The position numbers and the translations under genes are program-made. A stretch of DNA of 64,000 bases from Eledone cirrhosa (taxonomy: Eukaryota). Every line of letters starts with the position of its first letter. Position 1 is the stretch's first letter. Of the stretch, positions 1,947 through 54,572 are shown in pieces. The stretch is from positions 39,122,001-39,186,000 of the forward strand of contig OZ024749.1 of the NCBI GenBank assembly GCA_964016885.1, written 5' to 3'. Below the pieces are notes generated by a model that was not told the origin of the DNA, ran no database searches, and worked only from the letters and a program-made list of their open reading frames with translations.

Positions 1947-2142
1947 TAGGAACGAGTAGGACCCCGACGGCTGAGCTCAAGCCGTTTCGACGGCTAGTTC
2001 TGGACTCCAGAACTAGCCGTCGAAACAGCTTGAGCTCAGCCGTCGAGGTCCTACTCGTTCCTATTACCCACTCTACTACCCTAAGTATTGAGTACTTTGG
2101 TGCGTTATGGTACACCTGGTTCCTTACCACATTTGCTTCGTT
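1947..2142 (+). mobile_element. Palindromic PLE-type terminal insert, family A, in (TA)n
   Basis: Inverted repeat 1947-2063. The right arm holds the hammerhead 3' half (GAAAC 2022-2026 ... GTC 2042-2044), followed by a ~80-bp tail. Related copies at 8163, 21145, 47002 and 51843. Confidence 0.75.
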
Positions 2143-2224
2143 ATATATATATATATATATATATATATATATATATATATATATATATATATATATATAT
2201 ATATATATATATATATGTATATAT

Positions 2225-2657
2225 AACCAAAGATTAGTATGGTTCGTTGATTACTCAACGAATACAATATTACAATAGATTAGAAGCACTCAACAAAGGA
2301 TTTTCCTGGGGTTTTTAATATTATTCAAAATGTTAACAAATGAAAACTATTCTCATAATCAAAATATATATTTTATTATACATATTTCAAAGGTACTATG
2401 GTGTTTAAGTACGTTTTCATCAGACAAAATATAAGATTTGATATCTGACATACCACTACGGTTTTGATTATTCAATTCTAGTATTGGCAGATACTAGAAT
2501 TGAATAATCAAAACCGTAGTGGTATGTCAGATATCAAATCATATATTTTGTCTGATGAAAACGTACTTAAACACCATAGTACCTTTGAAATATGTATAAT
2601 AAGATATATATTTTGATTATGAGAATATTTTTCATTTGTTAACATTTTGAATAATAT
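2225..2657 (-). mobile_element. Palindromic PLE-type insert with a hammerhead in each arm
   Basis: Near-perfect inverted repeat 2318-2484/2491-2657. The unique tail is at 2225-2317. (TA)n lies on both sides. Confidence 0.75.
2541..2609 (+). ncRNA. Minimal type I hammerhead ribozyme (mirrored on the minus strand in the left arm)
   Basis: Stem I ATATTTTGT/ATAAGATAT; CTGATGA 2552-2558; stem II AAACGTACT/AGTACCTTT; GAAA 2587-2590; short near-palindromic stem III TATGTA; ATA cleavage triplet. Confidence 0.75.
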
Positions 2658-2905
2658 ATGTATACCGTATATATATATATATATATATATATATATATAT
2701 TCAACATTTTTTTATTATATATATATATATATAGTTACAGAAGAGTGTTGTTTATCTTAGTTGTTATGTTGTAACTCCCTGAGGATAGACAGGTCCTAGC
2801 AATCTAAAGCACTACTTGTCAGTAGTTTATTCCAGGTAGGTGATATTGAGTGAGTGGCCACCAGTATATCACAATGATTGCATAACTGCACCAATGATTG
2901 CGTAA

Positions 2906-2956
2906 GCATCTGACGAAGTCACATGTATAACCATGCAACAGAAATATATATAATGC
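2906..2956 (+). ncRNA. Minimal type I hammerhead ribozyme
   Basis: Stem I GCAT/ATGC; CTGACGA 2910-2916; imperfect stem II with CATG/CATG; GAAA-TATATA-TA. Confidence 0.65.
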
Positions 2957-3074
2957 AATAAACAATTATGGTGATTTAATCCCGTCTTAACTACCATCAG
3001 TAATGTACTGGGTAATTGCTGGCCTTGTGCCTAAAGTAGAAACAATTATTTGATATATATAAATACATATATAT

Positions 3075-3455
3075 GCAAAGTATAAATGAACTGAGAGAGA
3101 AATTGGGCATAAGAGGGATCAGATACAATATGTTACATACCGTTGGTATGGTCATGTAATACGTATTAAAGATGACAGTTGTATAAAAAGGTGCAGGGCA
3201 ATCAAAGTTGATGGAATCTATGGAGTAGAAAGACCCAGGAAGACACAGGATGAGGTGATAATAGCTGACCTTGTGCAATTACACCTCTCAAAGACAATGA
3301 CACGATATCTTTGGCATTATGCAGTAATACAGAAGATCTGCCTTCCCATGCGCACTGACTGAAACATACAACTAGTAGACACCTTTTAACCAATATACCT
3401 CCCTTCAATACACCTCCCATGCCCCGATGGACGTAAAAACGATGATAATGATGAC
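3075..3455 (+). mobile_element. Degenerate 3' fragment of an RTE-clade LINE
   Basis: Similar to 16410-17080 (INELREKLGIRGIR...RWYGHV...RPRKT) and ends in a GAT-rich tail. Confidence 0.8.
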
Positions 3456-3899
3456 TGGGAATGTCTGTGTTTCGTTCATTTTCTGTTGACTTCGCCCATA
3501 TTTTTTATTCGTTTTGTATGATTTTAGCCAAGCAGGACTCTTTTTTCCAAATTGATATGTTCCTCTATCCATTCTTTCTTTTCTCACTTTCTCTCACTCT
3601 CTCTCTCTTCTCATTGTGTCAGTTTATTTAGGACTCAACGTTCACACAAACAAACAAAATTGTTATTAATGTTTGTGTATTCTCTATCTCTTCCGCACCC
3701 CCCCCCCTCTCCCTCCTCTTCCTCCTTCTGCTTTTTCTTGGTTAATCAATATGTTGGACTTGTCTATATCTTTTCTTTCCAGTTGCAACATATTGGTTTG
3801 TAGTATATTTTATCTTATTTCTAAATAATCAAAAGGCTGATTATATTGTCTTATATATTTGTTACTCTCCCTTATACACTGGTGCCAGTTGTATTGAGC

Positions 3900-4128
3900 T
3901 TAACTCCTTAGTATTTAAACCGGTTATATCTGGTCAGAACTCTCTCACTTCTTTGTGTTGAAACTAACTGTAGTTGACCATACATACCTACATTAAGGTA
4001 TTGTTTTCAAAATAAATAAAATCAAAATCTCATAGATTCAATTTTATGTGAGATAATTATGTGAGATAAAGCCTCTACTGTGAAAATACAATAGTATATA
4101 TAGAGTATTGTAAATACTAAAGGGTTAA
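3900..4128. mobile_element. TTAA-bounded piggyBac-like MITE
   Basis: TIRs TTAACTCCTTAGTATTTA ... TAAATACTAAAGGGTTAA; no coding capacity. Confidence 0.7.
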
Positions 4129-4239
4129 AGCAACGAAATAAAATATCTCCAGAGATCGCCTGATGAGTTGAGACTATCTTCTGGGTTTCATTGTTTTTCT
4201 GTTGTCTTCGCCCATATTCTTAATTCATTATATGTTATA

Positions 4240-51842: not shown

Positions 51843-52043
51843 TAGGAAAAGAGTCAGGACCCCGACAGCTGAGCTCCGGCCGTTTCGACAGCTAGATCCG
51901 AATGTTCGGATTTAGCTGTCGAAACGGCCGGAGCTCAGCCGTCGGGGTCCTGACTCTTTTCCTATTACCCACTCTACTACCCTAAGAATCGAGTACTCTG
52001 GTGCGTTATGGTCTACCTAGTTCCTTTCCACACTTTCTTTGTT
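51843..52043 (+). mobile_element. Family A palindromic insert
   Basis: Palindrome 51843-51964 with GAAAC-GGCCGGAGCTCAGCC-GTC in the right arm; tail; (TA)n flanks. Confidence 0.8.
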
Positions 52044-52157
52044 ATATATATATATATATTTAATATAGAAAAGGCTTCTACAGGACTAGAACTGTTTCAT
52101 TCGGGATCAGAGTTTTGTAGCTTACTTGAAGCATTGTTGAATAGGGAACACAAATTT

Positions 52158-52443
52158 AGATAATTTTGAAAACCATACTATGCATTAGAAAGAAAATTAA
52201 ATCGCCAAGATAACAAAAGAATCTTACCTTAGCAAATTTAATTATCCCAAATATTTAACTTAAATCTTGCTCTCCAAACAAGCAAGTCAACTCCGATCGA
52301 TTTTTAAAGTCTGTCATGGATAACGGGTTTTTAAACCCGAAAATATTTGGGATTGTTAAATTTGGTAAGGTAAGATTCTTTTGTTATCTTGGCAATATAA
52401 TTTTCTTTCTTATGTTTGGTTTTCAAAATTATTTAAACTTGTG
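52158..52443. repeat. Aged inverted repeat with ~110-bp arms
   Basis: GCCAAGATAACAAAAGAATCTTACCTTA / TAAGGTAAGATTCTTTTGTTATCTTGGC, with flanking matches. Confidence 0.8.
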
Positions 52444-53071
52444 TATATAAACATATACATAAATCAGGATGGATTCTGTTTCAAACTGGTCAGACCATTA
52501 CTCAACAGAGTACTCGATGCAGTCCTAGAGTTGTTTTATACTTTTAAAAAACGAACTTGTTAATGTGGTTTCAAAATTTAATATAGAAAAATAAGTCTAT
52601 CGCAATCAAATCCATGAAGCGACATGAAATCTTTTTATTAATCATTAGTGGCGAATAAAAAAAATCATTATTATTAATTTTTTTTTTTTTTTTTACCCAT
52701 CACATTCTAATTATATTACCAGTACAATTACTAAACTCACGATAGTTACAAAATATCTTTTTGTTCTTCTATGAAAATTGAGATTTATGCCTAAGTAAAT
52801 TAAATTTATAAAAATAAAAAATCAATATTTTTTATTTCCTTTCACTACAATTCTTCGGCTTTATACCTAAGTAAATGAAGCAACCACTTCAACATAAAGT
52901 GTGAAAATAATAGACGCATTAGAAAATAATGGAAGGATTAATTGAAGTAGATTAATAATTAAAAAATTGAGGAAAGAATTCGAATAGCCATTAACATCAT
53001 CGACTAAAGATAATGTATATACATGCTTGATATATATATATATATATATATATATATATATATATATATAT

Positions 53072-53430
53072 ATAGTAATAATAATAAATTTGTAGACTAA
53101 AATCCAAAGAGGGCTCGATAAGGATAAATATATATCAAATATATAAGAACCGTAGAGCAAATATTTATTAAAATAACAGATTAAAGTTTAAGCAAAGAAT
53201 CGCTGCTTTCACCCTTAACGGGATCTTCTGAAACTAACAAAGTCAATCTGTAAACGCAGAAGTGGATATTTTAAAAAACGTTGGAACCGGAGGAAGACAG
53301 GAAGACGATACTTTGGTTCCACGAACCAAAGTATCGTTATACAGATTGACTTTGTTAGTTTCAGAAGATCCCGTTAAGAGTGAAAGCAGCGATTCTTTGC
53401 TTAAACTTTAATCTGTTATTTTAATAAATA
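53072..53430 (-). mobile_element. Family B palindromic insert
   Basis: Arms about 53161-53252/53340-53430, central hairpin CGATACTTTGGTTC/GAACCAAAGTATCG, tail 53072-53160. Confidence 0.75.
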
Positions 53431-53473
53431 TATATATATATATATATATATATATATATATATATATATATAT

Positions 53474-53826
53474 ATTAGAAAGTGAGGTTTTTTTTACAAA
53501 ATGAAAAATAACCGAGGTGTCCTACACGAGTGAAAGTATAAAGAAAAAAAGATGAAATCGAAAATGCAACTGGAGTCTTATTTTTTTTTTAAATATATAT
53601 ATTTATTTGGTTCCTTTACCGGTTTCGCAGTTCTTCTGCTTTTCAAAAGTAGAGTTGAGATGGAGGGTCTGTGGTTTTTCTCACGTGAGAAAAACCACAG
53701 ACCCTCCATCTCAATTCTACTTTTGAAAAGCAGAAGAACTGCGAAACCGGTAAAGGAACCAAATAAATATATATATTTAAAAAAAAAATAAGACTCCAGT
53801 TGCATTTTCGATTTCATCTTTTTTTC
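53474..53826 (-). mobile_element. Spacerless palindromic insert (~140-bp arms) with hammerhead 3' half
   Basis: Centre TTTTTCTCACGTGAGAAAAA; GAAAC-CG-GTA in the arms; tail 53474-53543. A related relic lies near 46740-46815. Confidence 0.75.
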
Positions 53827-54215
53827 TATATATATATATATACATATATATATATATATACATATATATGCGCGTGTGAGAGAGAGAAAGATAGAGATAG
53901 AGAGAGGGGGCAGTGCATTATGTCTGATGTTGACGGACATGAGAATGAGTACTCAATGCCGAAGCAAGAGATTAACGCCCTTTACCATGGCTAAGTGGTG
54001 ACACTTTTTATTCTAAAGTTTCATCTGTGTAATCACAGATACATACTATCACACCCACACATAGACACACACACTCACACACACACACACACATATATAT
54101 ATATATATATATATATATATATATATATATATATATATATATATATATATATATATATATATATATATATATATATATATACATGTATATATATACACAC
54201 ACACATATATATATA

Positions 54216-54572
54216 TGATTTCTAAAGAATGAAACAGTTCTAGTACTGTAGAATCTCATCTATATTAAAACTTGTATACTCTGCAATGTATTGAGTACCT
54301 TACTTACTGTGGTTACCTCTGATTCAACCCGGAATAACGTATATATATATATATATATATATAAATGTTGAGTATATATATATATATATATATATATATA
54401 TATATATATATATATATATATACATATATATATACGTTATTCCGGGTTGAATCGGAGGTAACCACAGTAAGTAAGGTACTCAATACATTGCAGAGTATAA
54501 AAGTTTTAATATGAAGTTTTAAAATGAATGAAACAGTTCTAGTCCTGTAGAATCTCATCTATATTAAAACTA
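54216..54572. mobile_element. Cluster of three family C pieces (+ 54216-54340, - 54435-54512, + 54525-54571)
   Basis: Near-identical to 21676-21800. The first two pieces are tail-to-tail across (TA)n. Confidence 0.8.

Follow-up and report, generated by a model that had tools for sequence, protein, structure and literature searches.

Twin bulged stem-loops at the two insertion ends of Hydra-clade Penelope-like elements in Eledone cirrhosa: a likely docking signal for internal reverse transcription

The window analyzed here, a 64,000-nucleotide stretch of the Eledone cirrhosa genome (contig OZ024749.1, positions 39,122,001 to 39,186,000), contains hairpin-plus-tail repeats that are 5'-truncated Penelope-like elements (PLEs) inserted in (TA)n. 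Detection of an element required a TA tract, and other targets were not counted. A sequence-only reading had listed 11 sites in this window at which a RYTC...GARY stem opens the tail a few nucleotides after the inverted arm stops, and all 11 are present within 1-2 nt. In the list that follows, stem 1 lies past the arm end (site 1) and stem 2 past the tail end (site 2).

2070..2093, plus strand: stem 1 (ACTC.TAC..GTA.tt.GAGT) in the family A element 1949-2141, whose arm ends at 2061, 8 nt before it
2288..2312, minus strand: stem 1 in the family B element 2226-2657, here with a single-base change; the 4-bp base is intact in L249
4719..4738, plus strand: stem 1 (ACTC.CAAA..TTTG.tc.GAGT) in the family D element 4427-4800, which has a hammerhead core at 4613-4654
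4946..4990, minus strand: Neptune-clade tail without the motif (negative control), matching the 3' end of a Neptune-type element in L103
6187..6251, minus strand: family F arm-only end, about 8 nt before the stem of other copies; hammerhead core 6230-6251
7041..7065, plus strand: family P stem 1, second copy at 7594-7618; tandem unit of about 550 bp; hammerhead core at 7329
7124..7163, plus strand: family P stem 2, 7 nt past a tail end known from a single terminal copy (L140)
7838..7883, plus strand: family G stem 1 (GCTC/GAGC), no inverted arm of its own
15709..15732, minus strand: stem 1 of an A-related copy, not on the earlier list
19846..19869, minus strand: further motif match beside a TA tract, no family given
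20690..20732, plus strand: family H stem 1; element 20110-20812
21252..21275, plus strand: family A stem 1; element 21146-21323
21738..21756, plus strand: family C stem 1, copy without inverted arm; minimal hammerhead core 21672-21694
47003..47094, no strand assigned: family A insertion with inverted arm 47003-47061 and tailed piece at about 47067-47094, no shared sequence
47780..47803, plus strand: family I stem 1 (GTTC.TGCA..TGCA.ta.GAAC)
48527..48561, minus strand: family J stem 1 (GTTC/GAAC); a hammerhead whose stem II is long was identified by eye at about 48649-48714
48912..48927, minus strand: family J stem 2 (TCTC.CC..GG.tc.GAGA), directly after a tail-end fragment
51971..51994, plus strand: family A stem 1 with one upper-helix mismatch; element 51844-52042
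52059..52102, minus strand: family C arm-only end, stopping 8-9 nt before the stem
53113..53158, minus strand: family G stem 1; element 53074-53427
53476..53542, minus strand: Neptune-clade tail without the motif (negative control), matching Neptune-type 3' ends in L101, L102 and L109
54278..54296, plus strand: family C stem 1, copy without inverted arm
54478..54496, minus strand: stem 1 of the family C insertion 54434-54570, within its tailed half; the arm (54525-54570, plus) ends at site 1

Those motif families to which a gene is linked (A, D, F, G, M and N) are members of the Hydra clade. In the sections of Craig et al. 2021 (PMC8557442) drawn on here, this clade is characterized by RWK/RWR and DKT motifs, a CxCx5C linker plus a GIY-YIG endonuclease (EN) at the C-terminus that lacks CCHH, as well as by a (TA)n target, hammerheads and inverted 5'-truncated copies. 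Families D and N have RWR with DKT (for DKG), M and G have RWK/RWR with DKT, all five ENs carry the CxCx5C linker, and CxxC plus CxH occur near the C-terminus in D and N. Judged by eye against Neptune proteins, the C-terminal EN is of the Hydra type without CCHH. The N-terminal GxKF/Y is found as GVKF at residue 84 in D, with none in N. ORFs of 737 and 813 aa carry YRDD and an IVY..Y[VI]G core, that is, RT and GIY-YIG endonuclease in a single ORF, and Pfam returned no match for these two of five proteins. Their RT/thumb region matches a Neptune RT at 24% (E 8e-7), and the nearest Atlas clusters carry HTH_animal, GIY-YIG and RVT_1. A Hydra EN lies upstream of family A in L295 and L282. Family D is very young, with intact ORFs and all 150 of the EN matches listed identical.

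The anatomy is likewise that of PLEs, with partial tandems, inverted 5'-truncated copies, an optional tail and insertion into (TA)n. Families B, C, D, F, H, I, J, M and P show a predicted hammerhead core pattern; a simple hammerhead pattern had no match in A, G and N. Families H, I, J and P are short tandem units without a detected ORF that retain the hammerhead and both stems, and no Hydra ORF was seen for H and I. These four are grouped by shared anatomy only, and families B and C have no linked ORF. What looked like an antisense connection between family J and an EN in L176 proved to be an inversion junction and not a J ORF. Elements with a Pfam PF01541 GIY-YIG domain were considered as parents and rejected, being of Neptune or Poseidon type with motif-less tails.

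The tails at 4946 and 53474, which the earlier reading had noted as fitting poorly, indeed lack the motif and are Neptune-clade. This assignment is based on a C-terminal EN with a CX2-5CxxC linker and CCHH in the L101 and L103 ORFs and their 3' ends. The motif is a feature of the Hydra clade and is not common to all tails. By eye it is also visible in consensus sequences published for Hydra elements of coral, sea cucumber, copepod and octopus, including Hydra-1_Ajap, where it occurs twice before the ATG. The evidence from other species consists of published consensi read by eye because a metagenome scan for relatives confirmed none of 144 candidates.

The motif is a bulged stem-loop made of a 4-bp base (NYTC/GARN), a 3'-side bulge with U first and an upper helix that covaries freely inside the base; loop sizes range from 2 to 100 nt across stem instances. 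The sequence-only reading had taken everything inside the 4-bp stem for a loop free in length and sequence, which was wrong, since the conserved bulge and upper helix sit there. Its compensatory pairs ACTC/GAGT, GCTC/GAGC and GTTC/GAAC are borne out by the stem alignment, in which 97.6% of cells are paired and double changes number 33 versus 8.9 in shuffles. RNAalifold, unprompted, returned the identical bulged stem from 19 sequences. Furthermore, stem 1 and stem 2 differ by compensation within one element in D, N, H and J. A strand test comparing RNA with single-stranded DNA, on instances picked and registered by eye, with family J stem 2 absent from the set, gave 5 G-U versus 4 A-C appositions, and both strands fold. 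Because of picking and registration by eye, and with families that are related to each other, p-values from such instance sets are inflated. In the minimum-energy fold of the whole two-stem region, stem 1 forms in 5/7 families and stem 2 in 2/7; families G and M show a different pairing, of the 5' half of stem 1 with the 3' half of stem 2.

An Rfam scan of the window gave 114 listed matches, of which none reached the gathering score and nearly all were miRNA-type hairpin look-alikes; no Rfam ribozyme family matched the stem sites. The 3' half of stem 2, used as a query, retrieved an unrelated TG..CA repeat, and a half-motif is not diagnostic alone.

The loose RYTC..GARY pattern reads identically on both strands and is common, with 64 matches in the window and 2.8% of 20-nt background windows. 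The signal lies in its position and not in the pattern itself. Position was assessed in a blind set of 980 kb of loci with 79 hairpin elements, from which the window and query-picked loci were left out. The motif lies 0-20 nt past the arm end in 36/79 elements, at 25-45 nt in 2/79 and inside the arm in none, and its start offset falls at 6-8 nt +/-1 in 27 of the 36 (7 nt in 9, 8 nt in 16, 9 nt in 2). Among families absent from the window, 4/27 clusters have a positioned motif (p=0.006 against 2.8%); the remaining 23 include Neptune tails and spurious hairpins. The isolated family C arms also end 8-9 nt short of its expected start. At 21738, 54278 and 7838 the copy itself lacks an inverted arm, and the arm end is known from other copies. 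Together, the results support the conclusion that the motif is a conserved, covarying structure at fixed spacing from the arm/tail boundary of these PLEs.

That boundary is not the only place so marked. Tandem copies of eight families (G, M, H, D, N, I, J and P) contain a second stem just past the tail end; in family D it was predicted first and then found on fetching the sequence. In a full family D element, stem 2 follows directly after the tail end. Terminal insertions end without stem 2, so it cannot be read from inserted cDNA. In family O, the single copy read has stem 2 as its 5' half only, no tandem copies of A, B, C or F were found, and a pattern search for family A tandems had none of 30 loci read through the tail end. 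The claim of a boundary marker thus holds for the arm/tail junction and falls short in that another stem marks the tail end.

In tandem copies both stems lie in the leader, directly upstream of the ATG. This placement would suit a 5' leader function (promoter, translation or packaging), with insertion ends falling nearby as AT-rich spacers prime well. We regard that explanation as highly improbable, since both stems are kept in the short units without a detected ORF, the stem-to-end spacing is fixed despite tails of about 65-130 nt, and other AT-rich stretches nearby are not used as insertion ends.

Insertion ends fall into two sharp classes, one before each stem, and each stem lies 6-9 bases past one of these two fixed ends. 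In family G, 59/62 ends are within 16 nt before stem 1 (21) or stem 2 (38), as are 8/9 ends before either stem in family M and 16/16 in family H. Ends before stem 1 or at the tail end make up 110/114 in A, 36/38 in C and 52/55 in D. Family J was not counted, its query having held a TA tract, and by exact match family N had no terminal copy ending at site 2. The UA-rich spacer preceding the stem usually has 2-5 bases in common with the (TA)n target. Among the 66 classified head-to-head pairs, 65 join site 1 to site 2, where 33 would be expected if the ends were independent.

This pairing bears on the idea that the stems direct RNA cleavage just 5' of themselves, yielding two RNA 3' ends for ordinary end-primed TPRT. 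The fixed spacing and the lack of stem 2 in terminal copies fit equally well, and Anolis RNA-seq read ends coincide with two start sites (PMC11167929). However, free pools of two RNAs predict site 1/site 1 and site 2/site 2 insertions, which were seen in 1/66, the stem sites match no Rfam ribozyme, and the Anolis start is internal and independent of the template 3' end (PMC11167929). We therefore judge cleavage of the RNA quite unlikely.

The lengths of arm and tailed copy speak to the proposal, also made in the earlier reading, that stem 1 stops second-strand synthesis, the arm being folded back from the tailed cDNA. Many family A insertions are near-symmetric hairpins, with arm and tailed copy about equal in 26/87 pairs and 27 more extending beyond the reference. 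Yet the arm reaches further 5' in 28/87 pairs and the tailed copy in just 6/87; for the three families whose references are long, 19/26 pairs have the longer arm. No overlap at all exists in 10 of the 87, and at 47003..47094 the arm and tailed piece share nothing, which excludes a simple fold-back there. Additionally, ORF-bearing sense copies end at site 1 in L046, L105 and L116, in L215 the tailed copy is the inverted one, and stem 2 is left unexplained. A stop for second-strand synthesis is thus contradicted, and fold-back is largely refuted and very improbable.

Alternatively, the stems could be read as DNA, with a longer cDNA or tandem intermediate cut by the GIY-YIG endonuclease in the AT-rich spacers to give the two ends. 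Craig et al. ascribe the tail to EN-mediated resolution (PMC8557442), cleavage by the D. virilis EN needed the tail (as cited in PMC11167929), the spacers resemble the target in being AT-rich, and each of the two strands folds. We consider this explanation unlikely, because a covarying bulged stem whose loop spans 2-100 nt implies a single-stranded state, the Anolis protein made both ends by RT initiation on RNA (PMC11167929), and in 10/87 pairs the tailed copy ends inside the tail while joined to a long arm, for which two primings fit better.

RT recognition is the role that fits the motif best, and a role in recognition by the endonuclease is possible. Based on these genomic signatures, we propose that the twin bulged stem-loops are probably an RNA-template docking signal that sets two internal RT start points in Hydra-clade elements, one per target strand. 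The protein, likely a dimer, would bind both stems on a tandem transcript, the endonuclease would nick both strands of (TA)n, and each 3'-OH would pair with the UA-rich spacer 5' of one stem. Reverse transcription from the upstream start would produce the tail-less arm and that from the downstream start the tailed copy, the two 5'-truncated cDNAs would be joined head to head, and the tail would simply be the distance between the stems. More tentatively, integration may be concerted, with an RT-endonuclease dimer seated on the two stems of one transcript and priming both strands simultaneously, the arm coming from the leading RT and the tailed copy from the trailing one; we view this as possible, short of probable.

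To our knowledge, how PLEs come by their tail and inverted arms has been a question ever since the class was first reported, and reconstitution has been achieved for a single member. If integration is concerted in this way, no transferable cis-signal for internal initiation would have been defined in telomerase-related retroelements before this stem, which would account for tail and inverted arm together. An RNA motif found across phyla, once per start site and with natural compensatory variants, leads directly to a mutagenesis plan, for which young family D supplies the enzyme. With the motif, Hydra ends can also be marked at the DNA level, the proteins of these elements having been missed by Pfam. 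Since PLE RTs are sister to telomerase RT (PMC8557442), the signal would bear on the positioning of an RT at a template site that is internal. What is new here is the second stem past the tail end, and we found no earlier description of this duplicated start signal in the literature searched; two-site initiation itself is already known for a Poseidon element (PMC11167929).

Among known systems, the hammerhead is present 40-480 nt upstream of stem 1 in most motif families, but it is distinct from the bulged stem, which lacks a hammerhead core, and the ends lie off the predicted cleavage site. RNA stems bound by RT complexes set the register of synthesis in hepatitis B epsilon, ciliate telomerase RNA stem IV and the R2 3' UTR, and the first two are also bulged; the likeness to the Hydra stem is one of analogy only. 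In twin priming of L1, a single RNA is primed by both target strands and head-to-head joining of the products follows, as proposed here for Hydra elements. The second site of L1 is not fixed and its cDNAs copy different segments, whereas Hydra sites are fixed and the cDNAs overlap.

The Hydra clade paper, in the parts consulted, covers protein motifs and hammerheads, and the stem is visible in its File S7 consensi and goes unmentioned in those parts (PMC8557442). The closest comparison is PAc, a Poseidon PLE of Anolis, whose protein, a predicted dimer, starts RT in vitro internally at two sites matching the ends of the element's tail, with extension of both target strands (Frangieh et al. 2024, PMC11167929). 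PAc shares with the Hydra elements two fixed ends with a tail between them, an upstream hammerhead, an AT-rich target, extension of both target strands and RNA structure at the start region, the Hydra side of this likeness being a genomic signature. In contrast, PAc has a tail of 30-40 nt, compared with about 65-130 nt in Hydra elements, one of its starts lies inside the AC-rich loop of a single stem-loop, and the sections of that paper drawn on here report no conserved motif (PMC11167929). Unlike PAc, Hydra elements have their own copy of the stem after each start, covarying across families and phyla.

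The motif analysed here lies in short elements that crowd the window between (TA)n tracts. The window is part of a 3.0-Gb AT-rich animal genome, possibly that of a cephalopod to judge by resemblance to the published Hydra-1_Obim. Each element consists of a hairpin of two inverted arms and a tail on one side, and many have a minimal hammerhead core upstream. The sequence-only reading had described a covarying RYTC...GARY stem at the arm/tail boundary, and all 11 of its sites were recovered with positions within 1-2 nt. The loose RYTC..GARY pattern is frequent (64 matches in the window; 2.8% of background windows), and therefore the position of the motif was tested using a hairpin-plus-tail detection blind to the motif. 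Over 1.77 Mb this gave 291 hairpins, of which 166 had a tail or an open end, and 58 clusters. The original descriptor was positive in 19/58 clusters (1.5 expected from shuffles) and a refined one in 18/58 (0.9 expected), and 66/93 motif matches began 6-8 nt past the minimal arm end, in counts that include query-picked loci and many copies of family A (letters A-P denote families named in this analysis). Among blind loci, which were not picked by queries (980 kb), the motif lay 0-20 nt past the arm end in 36/79 elements, compared with 2/79 at 25-45 nt and 0/79 inside the arm, and 4/27 clusters of families not in the window were motif-positive (p=0.006). The distance from arm end to motif is non-random, as had been suggested. 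We conclude that the motif is a real feature, a new cis-element in an already known retroelement clade. The tails of Penelope-like elements and their two starts are already known, as are the hammerheads and the Hydra clade; a full-text literature search, with most subscription papers outside its reach, found no description of a duplicated bulged stem.

The motif opens with NYTC and closes with GARN. Between them, 5' to 3', lie the first strand of an upper helix (2-7 bp), a loop (2-100 nt), the second strand of that helix and a bulge. The bulge begins with U and is two bases long, or one base in a single case. When 19 hand-picked instances were aligned with MAFFT, RNAalifold gave this bulged fold unprompted, with 97.6% of cells paired (only 26-49% in slid registers), and the anticipated covariation was found, with double changes in 5/7 pairs and 33 such cells versus 8.9 in shuffles. 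A hand-registered set held 29 of 33 instances found, four near-duplicates being left out. In this set pair 1 is A-U in 12, G-C in 13, U-A in 2 and mismatched in 2, pair 2 is C-G in 27 and U-A in 2, pairs 3 and 4 are invariant, and the first three upper-helix pairs are kept in 28/29, 25/29 and 22/26 instances; the strand comparison gave five G-U against four A-C appositions. The p-values of the covariation sets are overstated, since instances were chosen by eye and families are related.

Tandem copies were used to read transcript sequence beyond the tail. In families G and M a second stem (stem 2, at site 2; the stem past the arm end is stem 1, at site 1) starts about 6 nt past the tail end, shortly upstream of ATG. 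For family D stem 2 was predicted beforehand and was found in 4/4 full-length copies, 6-9 nt past the tail end, with G-C at a position where stem 1 has A-U. Stem 2 was also found in families N, H, I (pair 1 a wobble or mismatch), J and P, and is visible within the window itself for J and P; the one family O copy read has its 5' half only. No tandem family A copy was present at the 30 loci examined, and exact matching showed no terminal copy of family N with its end at site 2. Exact motif copies occur in 3/6 published Hydra consensi from File S7 of PMC8557442.

Motif in Hydra consensi (File S7 of PMC8557442, read by eye)
Hydra-1_Ajap: exact, two copies upstream of ATG
Hydra-2_Ajap: exact, one copy, 3' of hammerhead
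Hydra-2_Amil: exact, one copy, 3' of hammerhead
Hydra-1_Amil: wobble version
Hydra-1_Obim: wobble version
Hydra-1_Crog: changed or imperfect

Pfam GIY-YIG matches were considered as parents of the motif-bearing tails and rejected, as they proved to be of the Neptune and Poseidon types, two other Penelope-like clades. The tails at 4946 and 53474, which had fitted the proposed stem poorly, are 3' ends of Neptune elements. The GIY-YIG endonuclease (EN) upstream of motif-bearing ends differs from the Pfam-matched ones and has a CxCx5C linker.

Family ends downstream of a CxCx5C EN (L numbers denote other loci from the same genome)
Family D: L046
Family G: L105
Family F: L116
Family M: L042
Family A: L295, L282

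Identity of the five ENs to the first is 37-58%. In family N the stems precede the ORF, and no link to an ORF was found for families B and C at the loci examined. Full ORFs of motif-bearing families contain RWR/RWK, DKT, YRDD, CxCx5C, CxxC and CxH, features that section 11 of PMC8557442 gives for the Hydra clade. Pfam gave no matches for family D and N proteins. Intact frames are many (738 aa in family D; 830 aa in family N, copies L336-L339), and the family D EN shows 100% identity in 150/150 among the matches listed (copies including L332-L335). Both families are very young. Families H, I, J and P occur as tandem units of 0.4-1 kb with a hammerhead, in which no Hydra ORF was detected. These units retain both stems (window 6854-7660; L143/L144/L146; L036; L176) and are putative retrozyme-like non-autonomous partners of Hydra elements. 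The family G hammerhead-like core is CAGAAGA, not CTGANGA (window about 53205-53240, minus strand, and 7770-7800; L218), and the simple core pattern was not found in families A and N.

Other features of the window
69-307: two short exon-like stretches, presumably resembling FKBP-type peptidyl-prolyl isomerase
1007-1427: abundant SINE-like repeat family, also at about 20 other places
9567-10847 (minus strand), 15823-16692, 36771-38342, 47030-47524: LINE fragments, which we take to be pieces of RTE-like RT and one piece of a restriction-like endonuclease
22760-33000: tandem repeat of about 10 kb, strong skew (C- and A-rich)
52100-52444: Poseidon-type end with its own tail signature, CAATGCTTCAAG (also L111, L080)
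53476-53542: Neptune end

Given the FKBP-like stretches, the window may be intronic. Neptune elements likewise have two fixed ends (tandem junctions L101, L109, L108 and L113), and TCGTGT after site 1 is complementary to ACACGA after site 2 over 6-8 bp (L113 carries a mismatch). Their sequence possibly forms a single long stem enclosing the tail, a signal unlike that of Hydra. The Poseidon-type signature resembles the start of the RNA of PAc, an Anolis Poseidon element, as given in the supplement of PMC11167929. Another repeat, about 300 bp long and ending in TGTGG..CCACA, has internal tandem 16-nt units like the 3' half of the motif (L309-L331, L280). It was rejected as a motif relative; it is an unrelated look-alike, MITE- or solo-LTR-like.

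Insertion 3' ends running into TA fall into two classes (bimodal), and 5' ends are scattered.

3' ends by family (second class scored as tail end in A, C and D; family J left out)
Family G: 21 before stem 1, 38 before stem 2 (n=62)
Family M: 4 before stem 1, 4 before stem 2 (n=9)
Family H: 1 before stem 1, 15 before stem 2 (n=16)
Family A: 53 before stem 1, 57 at tail end (n=114)
Family C: 16 before stem 1, 20 at tail end (n=38)
Family D: 33 before stem 1, 19 at tail end (n=55)

Between the target and the spacer 5' of the stem usually 2-5 bases match; in family C the match is 1 base, and in family H it reaches 7. Both ends were classified in 66 of 94 head-to-head pairs; 65/66 combined site 1 with site 2 (33 expected), one was site2/site2 and none was site1/site1. 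This strict one-of-each pairing suggests a single coupled event. One of the roles proposed for the stem had been a stop for second-strand synthesis, which would make the arm a fold-back product. Among 87 site1/site2 pairs, in a comparison that retains loci picked by family A queries, 28 had the arm extending further 5' and 6 had the tailed copy doing so, 26 were about equal, and 27 extend beyond the reference sequence; in families G, D and M, which have long references, the counts were 19, 5 and 2. Moreover, in 10/87 pairs the tailed copy ends within the tail and has no sequence in common with the arm. The arm thus holds sequence that its partner is without, which contradicts the proposal and argues that fold-back is excluded as a general rule.

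The absence of stem 2 from terminal insertions suggests that it acts on the template or a longer intermediate. The simplest reading is that two RT active sites are docked on both stems of one RNA. One would dock on stem 1 and the other on stem 2, each RT would use as primer one of the nicked target strands, paired with the UA-rich spacer, and the trailing RT would have to traverse stem 1 and push the first cDNA aside, leading to an earlier stall, in agreement with the shorter tailed copies observed. Whole-region folds speak against this reading: they retained stem 1 in 5/7 families and stem 2 in 2/7, and the stems of families G and M cross-pair, so that the reading needs either help from a protein or a switch. 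DNA cleavage at the same two places is a possible alternative, as is RNA processing there. For the Anolis Poseidon element, PMC11167929 describes internal RT starts in vitro at two sites that are the tail ends, extension of both target strands and a predicted dimer. The reading proposed here is an extension of that in vitro result.
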